DNA of 30,634 bases from a virus (IMGVR_UViG_2563366824_000009); one strand, 5' to 3'; positions 2,958 to 25,447 are shown, numbered from the stretch's first letter. Numbers and translations are program-made. Notes: generated by a model not told the origin, from the letters alone.

Positions 2958-3467
2958 ATGTTTGATTTTCAGGTTTCCAAACATCCCCACTATGACGAAG
3001 CATGCCGCATTTTCGCACAGCGTCACAACATGGCGAAGCTGGCCGAGCGTGCAGGTATGAACGTTCAAACGTTACGTAACAAGCTCAACCCGGAACAGCC
3101 TCACCAGTTCACGCCACCTGAATTGTGGCTGCTGACTGACCTGACCGAAGACTCAACCCTCATTGATGGTTTTTTAGCGCAGATTCACTGCCTACCATGC
3201 GTGCCGGTTAATGAGTTGGCTAAAGACAAATTGCAGTCTTATGTCATGCGCGCAATGCGTGAACTCGGCGAACTGGCGAGCGGCGCGGTATCTGATGAGC
3301 GTCTGACCACTGCCCGTAAGCACAACATGATTGAAAGCGTTAACTCTGGTATTCGCATGTTGTCATTGTCGGCTCTGGCACTGCATGCACGTCTGCAGAC
3401 TAATCCTGCAATGTCGAGCGTGGTCGATACCATGAGCGGTATTGGCGCATCGTTTGGTCTGATTTGA
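2958..3467 (+). CDS. cII: Phage CII-family regulatory protein (186 CII-like)
   Basis: Start at ATG 2958 (MFDFQVSKHPHYDEACRIF...) with GAGGGAA SD; sequence recalled as close to 186 CII; position after Cox/Apl gene. Confidence 0.7.
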   Translation: MFDFQVSKHPHYDEACRIFAQRHNMAKLAERAGMNVQTLRNKLNPEQPHQFTPPELWLLTDLTEDSTLIDGFLAQIHCLPCVPVNELAKDKLQSYVMRAMRELGELASGAVSDERLTTARKHNMIESVNSGIRMLSLSALALHARLQTNPAMSSVVDTMSGIGASFGLI

Positions 3468-17106: not shown

Positions 17107-17545
17107 ATTAACCGTGCTGCAGGAACGCCTTGCCGGTCTGATTGCCAGCCTGTCACCGGCGGCACGTCGGCAAATGGCGGCTGAGATTGCGAAAAAGCTG
17201 CGTACCAGTCAGCAACAGCGTATCAAGCGCCAGCAGGCACCCGACGGCACCCCGTATGCGGCACGAAAGCGCCAGCCGGTGCGGAGCAAGAAAGGTCGGA
17301 TTAAACGTGAAATGTTCGCCAAACTGCGCACCAGTCGCTTTATGAAAGCCAAAGGCAGCGACAGTGCGGCGGTGGTGGAGTTTACCGGCAAGGTGCAGCG
17401 CATGGCGCGGGTTCATCAGTACGGCCTCAAAGACCGGCCAAACCGTAACAGCCGGGATGTGCAGTACGAGGCGCGCCCGTTGCTCGGTTTCAATAGTATA
17501 GATATGAGAATTATTGAGCGGTTAATAATTGGGGCTTTGGATTAA
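17099..17545 (+). CDS. S: Tail completion protein S (P2 gpS family), C-terminal approx 17 aa encoded by AT-rich inserted DNA
   Basis: 148 aa; conserved body, then divergent AT-rich-encoded tail NSIDMRIIERLIIGALD. Confidence 0.85.
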   Translation: MSELTVLQERLAGLIASLSPAARRQMAAEIAKKLRTSQQQRIKRQQAPDGTPYAARKRQPVRSKKGRIKREMFAKLRTSRFMKAKGSDSAAVVEFTGKVQRMARVHQYGLKDRPNRNSRDVQYEARPLLGFNSIDMRIIERLIIGALD

Positions 17546-17573: not shown

Positions 17574-17602
17574 AGGCTGGATAAACACCAGCCTTGATTT
17601 TA
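17574..17602 (+). terminator. Hairpin (AGGCTGG / CCAGCCT, 7-nt loop) followed by T-rich run; shared 3' end of S and the convergent cassette
   Basis: Stem 17574..17580 with 17588..17594, then TGATTTTAT. Confidence 0.4.
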
Positions 17603-18244
17603 TAGTTTGAAATCTGCGTAATTATCAATAACCTCTAGAACACCGCTGATGTTGTTATCTCTGCGCCAATTCCAATTGCCATGTATCAAATTTGCATTAG
17701 AATAAAGATATCTAAGGAACTGAGATGGTAAGAGTGGTTTGTTGCATAAAAATTCATCATAACTATTACTCATATACCACACATATCCATTTTTAATGTC
17801 AAAACTTAAATTCTCACCTTCAATTTTCTTAAAGTTAATTTCTTTATTTAGAGCATTTTCAAACTCTTGCGTATAATAAACACAGTGTATATGAGCGTGA
17901 GAAATGCACCCTCCCGAACGATCTATATTTTCACCTGCTCCGCTTTCAAAGAAAATTAGAGATCTACCAGATTGGTGGATTATAAATTCATTAAGTTCTC
18001 GCAGAATCTCCTTGCCATTACTCCGGGTATCTCGATCAAGAGCAGCAAAGGAGTTGATATGCCGCTTAGGAATCAGCATCACATGCGAATTATTTAGCGG
18101 GCCAATACTAGGTACAATTAGAAAATCATTTGTTTCTGCAATGATATTTTTCTTGTCATTTACGATTTCATCGTATCCTTTGATAAGGCTAATGCCATTT
18201 ATTTCATCGCATATTCCACAGAACGAATTACAAGAATTATTCAC
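17600..18244 (-). CDS. HIT (histidine-triad) family protein with N-terminal Cys cluster and about 90-aa C-terminal extension; cargo gene
   Basis: 214 aa; GTG start with AGGAGA SD 8 nt upstream; C-x3-C-x2-C near N-terminus; HIT-like HVMLIPKRH and canonical H-phi-H-phi-H-phi-phi motif HAHIHCV (nt 17885..17899); AT-rich. Confidence 0.7.
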   Translation of the reverse strand: MNNSCNSFCGICDEINGISLIKGYDEIVNDKKNIIAETNDFLIVPSIGPLNNSHVMLIPKRHINSFAALDRDTRSNGKEILRELNEFIIHQSGRSLIFFESGAGENIDRSGGCISHAHIHCVYYTQEFENALNKEINFKKIEGENLSFDIKNGYVWYMSNSYDEFLCNKPLLPSQFLRYLYSNANLIHGNWNWRRDNNISGVLEVIDNYADFKL

Positions 18245-18803
18245 GTTTATTGTCTCCTGGTTTTTTAGGGAGCAATTTTTCAGCCCAAGATGCGAGTCGG
18301 CTTAGAACTAAGTCTGAAAAATATCCTAATATAAAACAAATCGAGAATGCAATTTTGGTCTTACCATGCCCTTTAATGGAGGATACAAACGTATCCGGAG
18401 ATAATAGCGTATAAGAACAAAAAGCCACTAAAGCAGCTAAGAACGGAATAAAAATCCTCCAGTAGAACTTATGGGATTCCCAAGGGAAATTATACTGATT
18501 GTTTTTCCCTCTAGCAGTTACTCTATAAAACCATTTTGCATTATACACCCACCCTCCAAAAAAACCGCCAAGAATAGAAAACAAAGATATTTTATTATTA
18601 TATGTCAGCTCAAAAACAAATTGAAAAAGAAAGGCGAGAATGCAACCTATTACAAAAAGAACTATTAAATAAGCAAATTCGAATTTTATTTGTTCACAAT
18701 CGTTATTAAAATAAGGCACAACCTCATCATCGCCTAAGGTTTTTTTTCTTTCAGTCATTTGCCAAACACCTTCATTTTTTACTGTGAGCCAGGGTAATTG
18801 CAT
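18237..18803 (-). CDS. Integral membrane protein (about 4 predicted TM helices), first gene of two-gene cargo operon
   Basis: About 188 aa from ATG 18803 (alternative start at 18761 with AGGTG SD); hydrophobic segments FAYLIVLFVIGCILAFLFQFVF, ISLFSILGGFFGGWVY, YWRIFIPFLAALVAFCSYTLL, KIAFSICFILGYFSDLVL; its stop overlaps the GTG start of the HIT gene. Confidence 0.65.
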   Translation of the reverse strand: MQLPWLTVKNEGVWQMTERKKTLGDDEVVPYFNNDCEQIKFEFAYLIVLFVIGCILAFLFQFVFELTYNNKISLFSILGGFFGGWVYNAKWFYRVTARGKNNQYNFPWESHKFYWRIFIPFLAALVAFCSYTLLSPDTFVSSIKGHGKTKIAFSICFILGYFSDLVLSRLASWAEKLLPKKPGDNKRE

Positions 18804-18934
18804 ATTCAACTTGGCTATTCTAATTAATTCTCACAAGATTTCATAGATGTTGAGTAGACCTCTCAGAAGTTGTTTCATTCCTCACAGAATCCATCTCGAT
18901 TGCCACTAATCTTGCCGGGCGTCATCCTTCCCAT

Positions 18935-19570
18935 ATGAAAAATCTAAATTCTTTGCAAGAAATCGCACGCGCGATCCGAAATCTCATCCGTACCGGCATC
19001 GTTAGCGACGTAGACCTCAAGGAGGGGCTATGTCGTATCCAGACCGGGGGGATGCAAACCACTTGGCTGAACTGGCTGACCACCCGAGCCGGTCGTTCGC
19101 GGACGTGGTGGGCTCCCTCGGTCGGTGAGCAGGTTCTGCTGCTGGCAATCGGTGGCGAGCTTGATACCGCTTTCGTGCTGCCGGGTATTTTCTCCGACGA
19201 TAATCCCGCCCCGTCTGCCTCGGCGGATGCGTGGCATGTGGCTTTCCCTGATGGTGCGGTCATTGAGTACGAGCCCGAAACCGGCGCGCTGACGGTCAGC
19301 GGCATAAAAACGGCCGACGTGACGGCATCGGAGTCCATCACCGCAACCGTACCGCTGGTACTGGTGAAAGCCTCGACCAGTATCACCCTCGACACCCCGG
19401 AGGTGATTTGCACCAATAAGCTAACGACGGCGACGCTTGAGGTGCAGAAAGGCGGCAAGATGAGCGGCAATATCGAACATACCGGCGGGTCACTGTCGTC
19501 TAATGGCAAGGTACTCCACACCCATAAACACCCGGGCGACAGCGGCGGGCAAACGGGGGCACCGTTATGA
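18935..19570 (+). CDS. V: Baseplate spike/assembly protein V (P2 gpV family)
   Basis: 211 aa, same as P2 V; close match to recalled P2 V sequence. Confidence 0.9.
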   Translation: MKNLNSLQEIARAIRNLIRTGIVSDVDLKEGLCRIQTGGMQTTWLNWLTTRAGRSRTWWAPSVGEQVLLLAIGGELDTAFVLPGIFSDDNPAPSASADAWHVAFPDGAVIEYEPETGALTVSGIKTADVTASESITATVPLVLVKASTSITLDTPEVICTNKLTTATLEVQKGGKMSGNIEHTGGSLSSNGKVLHTHKHPGDSGGQTGAPL

Positions 19571-20829: not shown

Positions 20830-21430
20830 CCGGCTATTACCCGTTGGCTCGTCGCCGCTGGAGGTCGCCGCCGCCGCTGCGTTCTCTGAGATTCAGCGCG
20901 TGCCGGTACCGCTGCGCACCCTGTGGAACTGGCGCACCTGCCCGGTAAAGCTGCTGCCGTATCTGGCGTGGGCGCTGTCGGTCGACAGGTGGGATGAGAA
21001 ATGGCCGGAGGCGACAAAGCGCAGCGTCTGCGCGTCCTCGTTTTTCGTCCATCAGCACAAAGGCACCATCAGCGCATTGCGTCGGGTCGTCGAGCCGCTC
21101 GGCTTTCTGATTGAGGTGCGCGAGTGGTGGCAACTCGACGAGGAGCCAGGCACATTCCGCCTCGTTGTTGGCGTCCTCGACAGCGGCATCACTGACGAAA
21201 TGTATCAGGAGCTTGAGCGCCTGATTGAAGACGCCAAACCGGCAAGTCGCCACCTGACCGGGCTGGCTATCAGTCTGAGCTCGACCGGCGAACTGTATGT
21301 CGGCGCGGGATGCTATCACGGCGACGCGCTGACTGTTTACCCCTACACCCCCGAGGAGATTGTCGTCGGCGGTGAATATTACCCGGCCTCGGCCATCCAT
21401 TTGATTGATAACCTGAGAGTAAACGCATGA
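20822..21430 (+). CDS. I: Baseplate/tail protein I
   Basis: 202 aa; LLPVGSSPLE...VPLRTLW...LLPYLAWALSVDRWDE matches recalled P2 I. Confidence 0.85.
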   Translation: MNDRLLPVGSSPLEVAAAAAFSEIQRVPVPLRTLWNWRTCPVKLLPYLAWALSVDRWDEKWPEATKRSVCASSFFVHQHKGTISALRRVVEPLGFLIEVREWWQLDEEPGTFRLVVGVLDSGITDEMYQELERLIEDAKPASRHLTGLAISLSSTGELYVGAGCYHGDALTVYPYTPEEIVVGGEYYPASAIHLIDNLRVNA

Positions 21431-22491
21431 CCGCAAAATATTTTGCCATTCTGACCAATCAGGGCGCGGCGCGGCTGGCGAACGCGGCGGCACTCGGTAC
21501 CAAACTCAACCTGACGCAGATGGCCGTCGGTGATGCGAATGGTTCGTTGCCGACCCCTGAGCCGGCGCAGACGAAGCTCATTAACCAGAAACGCATCGCG
21601 CCGCTGAACCTGCTGACCGTTGACCCGGCCAATACCAGTCAGATTATCGCGGAACAGATTATTCCCGAGAATGAAGGTGGTTTCTGGATCCGCGAGATTG
21701 GTCTCTATGACGATGATGGTATTCTGATTGCCGTGGCGAACTGTCCGGAGACCTACAAGCCACAACTGCAGGAGGGAAGCGGTCGCACGCAGACCATTCG
21801 CATGATTCTGATTGTGTCGAGCACATCGGCAATCACCCTGAAAATCGACCCGGCAGTCGTGCTGGCAACGCGCCAGTATGTCGACGACAAGGTTATCGAG
21901 GTGAAAGGATATGCTGATGACCTGATGAAAAAACATGTTGAGGCCGCCAATCCACACAAGCAGTACCCGTTAATCGCTAATGCTCTGAAAGAAATGGTTG
22001 ACGCGGGACTGGTCGGCGACGTTCTTAAAAACCTTGGTTTGGGAGAAGGTGCTCCAGCTATTGGCGTTCCGTTCTTCTGGCCGTCCGCTGCAATGCCAAA
22101 TACTGTAATCGATAGCTGGTCCAGTATGGTGTTTTTGAAGTTCAACGGGGCGAAATTTTCTGCCTCTGATTACCCTGTGCTGGCAAAAGTGTTTCCTTCG
22201 CTGGTATTACCTGAAGCCCGCGGTGATTTCATTCGTATCTGGGATGATGGGCGAGGGGCGGACAGTGGGCGAGCATTATTAAGCTGGCAGGCAGCAACAG
22301 CTTTATCGCAATTTGGCGGTAATTATCCAGAAGGGTCCGGCCATGCGATTGCTGATTACGATGGAATATCAGCACACCAACCAGGTTTCTCTCGATTTCA
22401 GTACACCAGTAACTCAGTAGGAGATGGTGTTAATTTTATTGCCGTCAGACCACGTAACATTGCATTTAACTTTCTGGTGAGGGCTAAATAA
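21427..22491 (+). CDS. H: Tail fibre protein H; constant N-terminal part plus invertible C-terminal segment (current orientation)
   Basis: 354 aa; crossover site lies inside the gene at 22022..22047; C-terminal variable part downstream. Confidence 0.85.
   Translation: MTAKYFAILTNQGAARLANAAALGTKLNLTQMAVGDANGSLPTPEPAQTKLINQKRIAPLNLLTVDPANTSQIIAEQIIPENEGGFWIREIGLYDDDGILIAVANCPETYKPQLQEGSGRTQTIRMILIVSSTSAITLKIDPAVVLATRQYVDDKVIEVKGYADDLMKKHVEAANPHKQYPLIANALKEMVDAGLVGDVLKNLGLGEGAPAIGVPFFWPSAAMPNTVIDSWSSMVFLKFNGAKFSASDYPVLAKVFPSLVLPEARGDFIRIWDDGRGADSGRALLSWQAATALSQFGGNYPEGSGHAIADYDGISAHQPGFSRFQYTSNSVGDGVNFIAVRPRNIAFNFLVRAK
22022..22047 (+). other. Gin/Hin/Cin-type inversion crossover site (left) TTCTTAAAAACCTTGGTTTGGGAGAA
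   Basis: 26-bp site with hix/gix-like dyad (AAACC-N-GGTTT); inverted partner at 23844..23869 shares 21 of 26 positions. Confidence 0.7.
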
Positions 22492-23084
22492 TGAAACCTG
22501 TTTTTGATGAAAATGGACTGGCTACAGTGCCGGGTGATATGCGTTGTTTTTATTATGATGCAGTAACGTATGAATATACGGGCTGGTCTGATGAATATAT
22601 TAATACTGGTGTAAGTATGCCCGCCTGTTCCACTGGTATTGACCCGGGCGAAAACATTCCGGGAAAAGTGGCAGTATTTACAGGTAAGGGATGGAGCCAT
22701 GAAGAAGACCATCGCAATGAGACTGTTTACTCAATCGAAAATGGTGCTGCTGTTACAGTGGATTATATCGGTGCCATCAAAAACGGTTATGTCACGCTTT
22801 CACCGTTAACGCCATATGATAAATGGGATGGTGAGAAATGGGTGACAGATACTGAGGCACAACACGGTGCCGCAGTAGAAGCGGCAGAAGCACAGCGCCA
22901 GTCACTGATTGATGCAGCAATGGCTTCCATCAGTCTGATTCAGCTGAAATTACAGGCCGGGCGGAAGCTGACGCAGGCAGAAACCACCCGGCTTAACGCC
23001 GTGCTTGATTACATTGACGCGGTGACGGCAACAGATACGAGCACCGCGCCGGATGTCATCTGGCCTGAACTGCCGGAGGCGTAG
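22491..23084 (+). CDS. G: Tail fibre assembly protein (chaperone) for current H variant
   Basis: 197 aa; directly downstream of H; C-terminal ...TAPDVIWPELPEA. Confidence 0.8.
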   Translation: MKPVFDENGLATVPGDMRCFYYDAVTYEYTGWSDEYINTGVSMPACSTGIDPGENIPGKVAVFTGKGWSHEEDHRNETVYSIENGAAVTVDYIGAIKNGYVTLSPLTPYDKWDGEKWVTDTEAQHGAAVEAAEAQRQSLIDAAMASISLIQLKLQAGRKLTQAETTRLNAVLDYIDAVTATDTSTAPDVIWPELPEA

Positions 23085-23496
23085 GCCATTCAATATCTGG
23101 CGCACCGGAAGTATCGACCAGTTCCAGTGCGTCCAGATAATCCAGCCACAAATTATATTGCGCCAGTTCCTCACCTTTCAGGCGACCAATCGCCGCTTTA
23201 CCAGGCCATTGCTTACTGTTTATGTATTCGTTGACCTGATTAATCAATTGCTGCTTTTCCAGTTCGGCTGCGGCAATTTGTTCCTCATGAGTTGGCGGTG
23301 GAATATCAATCCATGCTGGCATTCCGTCGATGACACCTCTGTACTTTCCTTCTGGTGCTTCCTTCATAAATTCAGCGGCAGCAGTGTCGTCAATTTCGAT
23401 TCCATCATCAGGCCATTTCCCCGCTTCCTGATAAGCAATTTTAAGCTCCACAGGGAAAAACGCATTTTTATCAGCACTGAAAATATATTTCTGCAT
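23056..23496 (-). CDS. Alternative tail fibre assembly protein (for inverted orientation)
   Basis: 146 aa, convergent with G and overlapping its 3' end; C-terminus ...SGAPDIEWPTPPAVQAR parallels G C-terminus. Confidence 0.75.
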   Translation of the reverse strand: MQKYIFSADKNAFFPVELKIAYQEAGKWPDDGIEIDDTAAAEFMKEAPEGKYRGVIDGMPAWIDIPPPTHEEQIAAAELEKQQLINQVNEYINSKQWPGKAAIGRLKGEELAQYNLWLDYLDALELVDTSGAPDIEWPTPPAVQAR

Positions 23497-23498
23497 TT

Positions 23499-23852
23499 CT
23501 ACCGTCCTATCGAAATATAACTGAATCTGTATTGTTGAGAGATATCACTGATTGCCACGCGCCACGCTGAATTACTGATATGTTCAAAATTTACAGATAA
23601 AACCAGCGGTGCAGGATTCGACGGTTCTGACTGAACGGCATCAGACATGACACTGACTGAAACAAGCGGTTGATTAGGGAATGGTATAGGGAAGTGTCCA
23701 CTGATAATGCGGGTCGTGTTCCCTGAAAAAGTGCCAAACTGAACAATATATCCACCTGGTAGCCTGAACCATCCCGAGCCAGAAGCGAATGCTCCCATAT
23801 CCGGTATCTGATTTTCCCCTGTCCCCACATTCCTTCTTGCCGCTTCTCCCAA
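23499..23852 (-). CDS. Promoterless alternative tail fibre C-terminal segment (fused to H constant region after inversion)
   Basis: Open frame on minus strand running into the right crossover site; reads in frame with H across the shared GLGE codons; no independent ATG or SD. Confidence 0.7.
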   Translation of the reverse strand: MGEAARRNVGTGENQIPDMGAFASGSGWFRLPGGYIVQFGTFSGNTTRIISGHFPIPFPNQPLVSVSVMSDAVQSEPSNPAPLVLSVNFEHISNSAWRVAISDISQQYRFSYISIGR

Positions 23853-23869
23853 ACCAACCTTTTAGAAAA
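23844..23869 (-). other. Gin/Hin/Cin-type inversion crossover site (right) TTCTCCCAAACCAACCTTTTAGAAAA
   Basis: Reverse complement TTTTCTAAAAGGTTGGTTTGGGAGAA matches the left site over the right half. Confidence 0.7.
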
Positions 23870-23923
23870 TGCAGATATTCCGTTCAGCTGGCATGTTCCC
23901 GACTTTTTACCGGGTTATTTCTC

Positions 23924-24170
23924 ATGTTTATCGGTTATGTACGTGTATCAACAAATGACCAGAACACCGCATTACAGCGAAATGAACTGGAGTGCGCAGG
24001 ATGTGAGCTGATTTTCGAAGATAAAATCAGCGGCAAAACATCAATCAGACTGGCCGGGGCTAAAGAGGTTACTCAGAACCTTGTCAGAGGGCGATACGCT
24101 TGTGGTCTGGAAACTGGATCGCCTCGGGTATCTCAACGCTATACAAACAATTTCCCGCATCCGTTGCTGA
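23924..24170 (+). pseudogene. Serine DNA invertase (Gin/Pin/Hin family) remnant: frameshifted and 3'-truncated
   Basis: MFIGYVRVSTNDQNTALQRNELECAGCELIFEDKISGKTS in frame, then homology (DWPGLKRLL...GDTLVVWKLDRLG) continues in another frame and stops; about 110 C-terminal codons including the DNA-binding domain are absent. Confidence 0.75.
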
Positions 24171-24268
24171 TGTCTCAATGTGTCAGACATCGCCCAACAC
24201 TGACAAATAGCCCCTCAACAGACCAGCCAGGACAATAACACTTGCCCACTAACCACGGAGTTAACCGG

Positions 24269-25447
24269 ATGAGTGATTTTCACCACGGCGTGCAGGTGCT
24301 TGAGATTAACGACGGCACCCGCGTCATTTCCACTGTTGCAACCGCAATCGTCGGCATGGTCTGTACAGCCAGCGATGCGGATGCGGCAACCTTTCCCCTC
24401 AACGAGCCGGTACTGATTACCAATGTGCAAAGCGCCATTGCGAAAGCCGGTAAAAAAGGCACGCTGGCCGCGTCCCTGCAGGCCATCGCCGACCAGTCAA
24501 AACCTGTCACAGTTGTCGTGCGTGTTGCCGAAGGTACCGGAGAAGACGCCGAAGCGCAGACCATTTCCAATATCATCGGCGGCACGGATGAGAACGGTAA
24601 ATATACCGGCATCAAGGCGCTGTTGACTGCCGAAGCAGTCACCGGCGTTAAGCCGCGCATTCTCGGCGTGCCGGGTCTCGATACCAAAGAGGTCGCAGTC
24701 GCACTTGCTTCGGTCTGTATCAGCCTGCGCGCCTTTGGCTATATCAGCGCATGGGGTTGTAAAACCATTTCCGAGGCGATGGCCTATCGCGAGAATTTCA
24801 GTCAGCGCGAGCTGATGGTCATCTGGCCTGATTTCCTTGCATGGGATACCACCACAAACGCCACCGCACCGGCATACGCAACTGCGCGCGCACTCGGCCT
24901 GCGTGCCTATATCGACCAGACCGTCGGCTGGCACAAAACCCTGTCTAACGTCGGCGTGCAGGGTGTTACCGGCATCAGTGCGTCAGTGTTTTGGGATTTG
25001 CAGGCATCCGGCACCGATGCTGATCTGCTCAACGAGGCCGGGGTCACGACACTGGTGCGTAAGGATGGCTTCCGCTTTTGGGGTAACCGCACCTGCTCTG
25101 ATGACCCGCTTTTCCTGTTTGAGAACTACACCCGCACCGCGCAGGTGCTGGCCGACACGATGGCCGAGGCGCACATGTGGGCGGTCGATAAGCCCATCAC
25201 CGCATCACTTATCCGTGACATTGTCGACGGCATTAACGCCAAATTCCGCGAGCTGAAATCAAACGGCTACATCGTGGACGGTGAATGCTGGTTCGACGAG
25301 GAATCGAACGATAAGGAAACCCTCAAGGCCGGGAAACTGTATATCGACTACGACTATACACCGGTTCCACCACTGGAAAGCCTAACCCTGCGCCAGCGTA
25401 TCACCGATAAATATCTGGTGAATCTGGCCGAATCGGTCAACAGCTAA
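24269..25447 (+). CDS. FI: Tail sheath protein (P2 gpFI family)
   Basis: Start at ATG 24269 (MSDFHHGVQVLEINDGTRV...), ACGGAG SD; 392 aa; close match to recalled P2 FI. Confidence 0.9.
   Translation: MSDFHHGVQVLEINDGTRVISTVATAIVGMVCTASDADAATFPLNEPVLITNVQSAIAKAGKKGTLAASLQAIADQSKPVTVVVRVAEGTGEDAEAQTISNIIGGTDENGKYTGIKALLTAEAVTGVKPRILGVPGLDTKEVAVALASVCISLRAFGYISAWGCKTISEAMAYRENFSQRELMVIWPDFLAWDTTTNATAPAYATARALGLRAYIDQTVGWHKTLSNVGVQGVTGISASVFWDLQASGTDADLLNEAGVTTLVRKDGFRFWGNRTCSDDPLFLFENYTRTAQVLADTMAEAHMWAVDKPITASLIRDIVDGINAKFRELKSNGYIVDGECWFDEESNDKETLKAGKLYIDYDYTPVPPLESLTLRQRITDKYLVNLAESVNS

Follow-up and report, generated by a model that had tools for sequence, protein, structure and literature searches.

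The G segment of Mu (inverted by Gin), the C segment of P1 (Cin) and the P segment of e14 (PinE) share one architecture: the constant N-terminal part of the tail-fibre gene H lies outside an invertible segment, the alternative C-termini lie inside, two sites of 26 base pairs (bp) bound the segment, and an invertase gene is adjacent. A sequence-only reading of IMGVR_UViG_2563366824_000009, a stretch of DNA of 30,634 nucleotides (nt) hereafter called the window, had recognized this architecture in the region of its tail-fibre gene, and our analysis agrees. The 30.6 kb of the window make up a complete P2-like (Peduoviridae) prophage of Escherichia coli. Mu and P1 encode their own active invertases, unlike this prophage, the invertase gene of which is dead. 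The comparison of genomes described below shows that the segment nevertheless inverts in natural E. coli populations, and that it did so after the death of the invertase. We consider it to be an "orphan" host-range switch of the Gin/Cin/Pin type, one that is not autonomous, within a P2-like prophage that is complete in other respects, the invertase being supplied in trans, and give this reading a probability of about 0.8.

On the sequence of the sites, the closest system is the P segment of e14. Its pix sites (CTCTCGAAAACC TT GGTTTGGGAGAA and TTTTCATAAACG TT GGTTTGGGAGAA) have the same core and the same inner half as those of the window, and the outer halves differ at 3 of 12 positions each. 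The e14 segment measures 1797 bp, compared to 1822 bp in the window; both carry convergent tail-fibre C-termini with Caudo_TAP chaperones, and in both the invertase gene points away from the segment. The two are 88.5% identical over part of the chaperone region, whereas the C-terminal cassettes differ. However, e14 is a defective lambdoid element with an intact PinE of 184 amino acids (aa), while the window is the prophage of a complete P2-like myovirus and only retains residues 1-67 of the enzyme followed by an out-of-frame tail. The C segment of P1 belongs to the same class of switch. Its cixL site has the same TT core, the annotated crossover point being between the T's, and matches the inner half of the window sites at 10 of 12 positions, but the P1 invertase reads towards cixL. 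The sequence-only reading had placed two 26-bp inverted sites around about 1.8 kb; they are indeed found at these positions, and they match P1 cixL and, over the core and inner half, e14 pix.

By genomic context, the closest systems are the P2-like prophages in which an invertase gene adjoins FI. Phage pro483, the "P2" phage of O157:H43 T22 and prophages of the enteropathogenic E. coli (EPEC) strain E2348/69 all have the order I-H-G-(G')-(H')-invertase-FI, as in the window. The inversion of P2-like H/G segments has been demonstrated in EPEC cultures by whole-genome sequencing (PMC4272514). Most P2-like H/G switches have full-length invertase genes, which are about 76-78% identical in DNA sequence to the remnant in the window. 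The "DNA invertase" of the T22 "P2" phage (NC_041848), however, has 164 aa and loses its frame after about residue 127; the copy of E. coli JX21CE33 is annotated as frameshifted. The window thus contains one of several decayed copies, and not a unique one.

The evidence that the segment still inverts comes from the comparison of 15 carrier loci from complete E. coli genomes, together with a phage record, all cut at the centres of both cores. Five cassette types each occur in both orientations, among prophages which are 99.9-100% identical and have the same dead invertase. The window and the prophage of E. coli AST217 are 99.98% identical, and their sole structural difference is the inverted segment (nt 22034-23863 of the window align to AST217 on the opposite strand): cut at the cores, the flanks are identical at 3100/3100 and 3399/3400 positions in the same orientation, and the segment is identical at 1822/1822 positions, but inverted. 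Strains EC12 and EC15 have flanks of 2130 and 4430 nt and a segment of 1869 nt, all 100% identical, with the segment inverted. The same is true of CH423 and CH425, clonal isolates from the same hospital whose chromosome lengths are 5 bp apart (flanks 100%, inverted segment of 1865 nt, 100%), and of strain 103 and phage 613R3 compared to FDAARGOS_1280, 98210 and 98192 (flanks 100%, inverted segment of 1542 nt, 100%). Lastly, E1535 and E1739 have flanks that are identical at 100% and at 3438/3439 positions, and an inverted segment that is identical at 1804/1806 positions (99.9%). That both orientations exist, a question which the sequence-only reading had raised, is therefore seen by comparing near-identical prophage genomes.

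Both orientations are found within each of three secondary lesion states of the invertase gene, and the members of each pair have the same secondary lesion. Since the inverted pairs have the deletion that killed the gene and even the secondary lesion in common, the inversions post-date the death of the invertase. The switch had been proposed to be locked unless a related invertase flips it: the five identical-but-inverted sets contradict the locked default, while the second part of the proposal is retained.

The consequence of inversion for the tail fibre can be read from the AST217 record. When the segment of the window is flipped in silico, the alternative C-terminus fuses in frame to the constant part of H across LKNLGLGE/AARRN, as had been predicted from the shared GLGE codons, and the resulting product of 321 aa is identical to the annotated H protein of AST217 (WP_142438010.1). 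Open reading frames and Pfam matches agree that the segment holds the C-terminus of H, two chaperones and a promoterless alternative C-terminus, whose own reading frame covers nt 23499-23852. The locus has the organization of a host-range cassette switch: the constant N-terminus is outside, and the alternative C-termini with their cognate chaperones are inside, in opposite orientations.

The two sites consist of 12-bp half-sites and a 2-bp core, which is TT in both when each is read towards the segment, and they are in inverted orientation. The 14-mer common to both, TTGGTTTGGGAGAA, has two exact copies in the window, one on each strand, and none in 100 shuffled sequences. A third site, as in a shufflon, was sought, and the locus has only two sites within 2 mismatches of the half-site. 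A shufflon (a multi-site system with the tyrosine recombinase Rci) was rejected on this count, and the sole tyrosine recombinase is the integrase of the prophage.

The pair formed by E1535 and E1739 locates the exchange. An A/G single-nucleotide polymorphism in the inner half (site position 23) moves with the segment, and the outer halves, with differences as far as position 12, remain with the flanks. The exchange thus occurred within site positions 13-22, which contain the central TT. This is the signature of a site-specific exchange at the core, and not of homologous recombination over the 15-bp repeat. The point bears on the alternative that survives best, namely that the segment inverts without any invertase, by RecA-dependent or replication-associated recombination between short inverted repeats. 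The sites do form a perfect inverted repeat of 15 bp (21 bp at 90%), and two carrier chromosomes have no detectable helper, of which AST217 in particular keeps this alternative alive. Efficient homologous recombination usually needs substrates far longer than 15 bp, however, and yet five of 11 cassette types are found inverted in a small sample. The exchange falls within a 10-bp interval around the core of a canonical invertase site, and the same sites are flipped experimentally by invertases: PinE and PinQ, the latter from a different prophage, invert e14 at TTGGTTTGGGAGAAGG (PMC12529663, 2025), a 16-mer which is identical to the left site of the window (nt 22034-22049). We regard recombination of this kind as improbable.

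The invertase gene of the window starts at nt 23924, as the sequence-only reading had found, and its 5' remnant includes the motif of the catalytic serine, VRVSTNDQ. In all copies, W replaces a conserved Arg (GAC TGG CCG). The change of frame that had been noticed near nt 24048 was located, by alignment to intact invertase genes, in a 4-bp tandem duplication, downstream of which GDTLVVWKLDRLG reads in frame 2. Once the duplication is removed, the remnant aligns to PinE residues 1-67, and the 5' homology ends at nt 24128, which corresponds to Gly67 of PinE. From a first MAFFT alignment, the gene had seemed to be truncated at its 3' end, with some 50 nt of unrelated filler behind it; this was rejected, as tblastn and pairwise alignment identify the filler as the gene's own 3' end. 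Indeed, nt 24127-24210 encode the C-terminal tail of the invertase (GISTLYKQFPAS...TDK, then stop) in a third frame, out of frame with the 5' part, and about the last 12 codons are kept. PinE 171-181 and Cin 172-182 match nt 24127-24162 in tblastn, and the tail also aligns at the nucleotide level with the 3' ends of pinE, cin and the invertase genes of JX21 and P2-T22, which supports its identity. The main lesion was therefore re-read as a deletion of about 310 bp inside the gene, which removes PinE residues 68-170. The gene is dead, as had been claimed, but it is not simply truncated at its 3' end, since its C-terminal tail survives.

Lost with the deleted part are the remainder of the catalytic domain, helix E and almost the entire DNA-binding domain, and hence no active enzyme can be produced. 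The segment is thus not adjoined by an intact small serine recombinase, one complete with catalytic domain, helix E and C-terminal helix-turn-helix. The deletion has left three elements intact, namely the two crossover sites, the initial 201 nt of the gene and the late promoter of FI.

Of 5426 complete E. coli genomes, 35 have the same deletion, which also occurs in vB_EcoM-613R3, an isolated and induced phage, and in 12 contigs of metagenomic or viral origin. The lesion is therefore not a sequencing error, as the sequence-only reading had allowed for. RefSeq already labels the gene of the carriers as a frameshifted or incomplete recombinase pseudogene. An exact-match scan of species-representative genomes did not find the deletion junction, which is seen at strain level and in metagenomic or viral contigs only. 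Among the 12 contigs with the junction, nine do not include the left site, and several start only 250-1300 bp upstream of the right site; these missing left sites might be assembly breaks caused by mixed orientations, or reflect the limits of the stored flanks. The search for a closer intact ancestor of the invertase gave none, the best matches being the JX21CE33 gene (88%), which is itself frameshifted, and PEC178 pinE (about 80%).

The secondary states of the 35 carriers were assigned by match length, in agreement with every locus that was fetched: 14 have the 4-bp duplication, 14 have a 1-bp deletion in a G run and seven have neither. Neither intact invertase genes nor the EC12 and E1535 clades of the remnant have the duplication. 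The internal deletion is common to all carriers and the frameshift states are specific to clades, which shows that the deletion is primary and that the frameshift came later. Within the lineage, the remnants have come to differ by as much as about 2.5%. The same site pair, prophage backbone and dead invertase are found with at least 11 cassette combinations, in segments of 1542-1869 bp, which implies that cassettes are frequently replaced by recombination with other prophages.

It could be argued that the switch is a locked relic which froze when the invertase died, and that the two orientations are ancestral states from before the decay. The invertase is unquestionably non-functional, the window contains no other invertase and the AST217 chromosome shows no helper, all of which would suit a relic. 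However, the lineage that carries the deletion has had time to diverge and to acquire its many cassettes, and the orientation differs among prophages that are 100% identical over 6.5-8.4 kb and have the same secondary lesion. Five independent cassette types contradict the relic in this way, including two from clonal isolates of one hospital, and we hold it to be very improbable. The deposited orientation could also be an arbitrary choice of the assembler, a proposal to which we give even less credit. Assemblers do give a single consensus orientation, and several metagenomic or viral contigs end short of the left site; but the reported orientation needs reads that span the unique flanks, and the junctions are base-exact in every case. 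Moreover, an arbitrary choice requires that both orientations be present in the sample, which would itself be evidence of inversion. The least credible proposal is that the surviving N-terminal fragment is functional, for example as a 67-residue dominant-negative partner of resident invertases: a clade of seven genomes including EC12 retains residues 1-67 in frame, but two other clades broke the frame by different lesions, all copies have W at the conserved Arg, and the fragment is devoid of helix E and of the DNA-binding domain, a pattern of neutral decay.

Switches of this class have their recombinational enhancer within the 5' part of the invertase coding sequence, at about 100 bp from one of the sites (PMC3798978). 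The record of P1 annotates it at nt 19-90 of cin, and the remnant in the window contains a homologue of this element, which the sequence-only reading had missed, at the same nucleotides of the gene. Two candidate Fis cores can be proposed in it, the second of which is identical to that of P1; the proximal one and the right site are about 95 bp apart, centre to centre. The homologue lies wholly upstream of both lesions of the invertase. The retained putative enhancer probably explains how the orphan switch can be serviced in trans. In e14, the P segment is reported to be locked by the Keio deletion of pinE despite the presence of pinQ (PMC12529663). This deletion also removes the enhancer in the 5' end of pinE, a point on which the paper does not comment and which would fit a role of the retained stump.

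A further proposal, which is tentative and in our opinion rather unlikely, is that the stump has been kept by selection as the carrier of the enhancer, and that switching in this lineage depends obligately on Pin-family invertases supplied by the host. Three independent lesions of the invertase gene in P2-like switches (in the lineage of the window, in P2-T22 and in JX21CE33) are all downstream of nt 90. When the remnants are compared, about 6 variable events are found over 433 nt, with 0 in the first 115 coding nt compared to about 1.6 expected, a difference without statistical power. If the proposal were true, the locus would be a non-autonomous switch comparable to a miniature inverted-repeat transposable element (MITE) with respect to transposases, found in 35 of 5426 genomes, with at least 11 cassettes and one induced phage.

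Flipping presumably uses an invertase borrowed from another prophage. In the mechanism that we propose for the orphan switch, a Pin-family serine invertase encoded by another prophage or by a plasmid of the same cell would bind both sites, assemble with Fis on the retained enhancer, cut at the central TT dinucleotide and rotate the strands. The inversion would exchange the C-terminus and the chaperone that are expressed from the late V-operon transcript, so that H would consist of 354 or 321 aa, and this exchange would alter receptor specificity. As the catalyst would come from elsewhere in the cell, the switching of host range would be conditional on the invertases of the host. Cross-action of this kind is described in work that PMC12529663 cites: Fin of Fels-2 acts on the H segment of Salmonella, PinE acts on the H and G segments, and Fin, PinE and PinQ are all credited with action on foreign segments. 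In the case of Fin, a P2-family phage donates the enzyme, whereas the phage of the window is the recipient.

Potential helpers are common in E. coli. At least one part of a combined query made of the remnant, pinE and pinQ matches 5089 of 5426 genomes. With this combined query, P2-like prophages with an intact invertase gene adjoining the sheath gene outranked the carriers, and shorter queries were used for the carrier counts. At least one further 5' region of the PinE/Gin/Cin type is present in 22 of the 35 carrier chromosomes, and with a fragment of PinQ added, 33 of the 35 contain at least one further PinE- or PinQ-type match.

Several points weigh against a switch serviced in trans. We infer the helper of this element. 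The window was found to contain no recombinase other than the integrase. The carrier counts come from queries that ranked the 35 carriers first, the matching places being read for each chromosome, and the host of the window is outside the collections; the extra Pin-family loci are counts of DNA matches, and some of them may be pseudogenes. The chromosomes of AST217 and ESBLEC_MG48 (NZ_CM132639.1) have no PinE- or PinQ-type DNA match beyond the remnant, in a search that left aside plasmids and more distant serine recombinases. AST217 holds a flipped copy all the same: either the helper comes from a plasmid or is a more distant recombinase, or the flip took place in an earlier host. Finally, the putative function of the enhancer is based on 82% identity to the P1 element.

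In its operation, the switch is ordinary. It is a standard switch of the Gin/Cin/Pin/Hin type, best filed as a non-autonomous member of this class, and it reveals no new mechanism. The analysis adds genomic evidence that an orphan switch has continued to flip, a corrected account of the lesions and of their order, and the putative enhancer in the stump. A host-range switch can thus stay active after the loss of its own recombinase, and the evidence for this comes from genome data alone. Consequently, the annotation "frameshifted recombinase" does not mean that the adjacent tail-fibre genes are fixed. This is relevant to the prediction of prophage host range and to strain typing, as clonal isolates can differ in H purely through inversion. 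It also bears on the sharing of recombinases among the prophages of one cell, for which the locus offers a natural recipient case beside the cross-reactivity already known among Pin, Gin, Cin, Hin and Fin. The features of the locus are collected in Table 1.

Table 1. Features of the inversion switch and its surroundings, numbered from the first nucleotide of the window.
Feature	Position	Strand	Description
Tail-fibre gene H as now assembled	21427..22491	+	354 aa; Pfam PF12571 (Phage_tail_fib N-terminal), residues 1-150, E = 5.5e-63
Constant part of H	21427 to crossover 22034/22035	+	100% identical to AST217
Left crossover site	22022..22047		26 bp; outer half TTCTTAAAAACC (22022-22033), core TT (22034-22035), inner half GGTTTGGGAGAA (22036-22047)
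Invertible segment	22035..23856		1822 bp, measured from centre to centre of the core dinucleotides
Variable C-terminus 1 of H	22036 to 22491	+	
Assembly chaperone for C-terminus 1	22491..23084	+	197 aa; Pfam Caudo_TAP, E = 1.8e-27
Assembly chaperone for C-terminus 2	23056..23496	-	146 aa; Pfam Caudo_TAP, E = 2.7e-34; convergent with the first chaperone
Promoterless alternative C-terminus 2 of H	23499..23856	-	Gp53-like_C, Pfam PF21882, E = 2.1e-9
Right crossover site	23844..23869		26 bp; reverse complement TTTTCTAAAAGG TT GGTTTGGGAGAA
Right crossover site, read on the + strand	23844..23869	+	inner half TTCTCCCAAACC (23844-23855), core AA (23856-23857), degenerate outer half CCTTTTAGAAAA (23858-23869)
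5' remnant of Pin/Gin/Cin-type serine invertase gene	23924..24128	+	codons 1-67; Pfam Resolvase N-terminal match of 41 aa
Homologue of the recombinational (Fis) enhancer	23942..24013		72 bp, nt 19-90 of the invertase gene; 59/72 identical to the P1 cin enhancer, no gaps
Candidate Fis core, first	23945-23959		15 bp, GTATCAACAAATGAC; putative assignment
Candidate Fis core, second	23994-24008		15 bp, GCGCAGGATGTGAGC; putative assignment
4-bp tandem duplication (frameshift)	24040..24047	+	ATCA ATCA; from alignment to intact invertase genes
Deletion junction, then surviving 3' tail of the invertase gene	24126..24210	+	GG/GGG microhomology at 24126-24128
Retained late-promoter (pF) region with activator-binding-site homologue and FI start	24173..24271	+	aligned to P2 and P2-T22

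The prophage of AST217 (NZ_AP043630.1) is located between yfiB and rplS, and its annotation follows the gene order of P2: int, CI, CII, replication endonuclease, portal, terminase, scaffold, capsid and lysis genes, and then V-W-J-I-H, sheath, tube, tape measure and D. The comparison with P2 bears out the earlier proposal that the slot of fun(Z), between G and FI, is occupied here by the switch module. FI is the tail-sheath gene; it starts with the ATG at nt 24269 and its product has Pfam sheath domains. The P2 counterpart of the retained late-promoter region carries the annotation "activator binding site; activation of pF promoter".

Elsewhere in the window, an insert of two genes is found on the minus strand at nt 17600-18809, between a tail-completion gene (which ends at nt 17545) and the baseplate gene V (nt 18935). 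Its GC content is low (32-38%, compared to about 58% in the flanks), and its products are a HIT-family protein of 214 aa, with weak Pfam matches to HIT, DcpS_C and CwfJ_C_1, and a hypothetical protein of 190 aa. The insert resembles cargo in a known accessory-gene hotspot of P2. It could be an uncharacterised anti-phage module, although PADLOC gave no hit for either protein. A gene for a DUF2511 protein lies at about nt 1250-1590, between the integrase and CI repressor genes, a position which is likely a further accessory-gene slot of the prophage.

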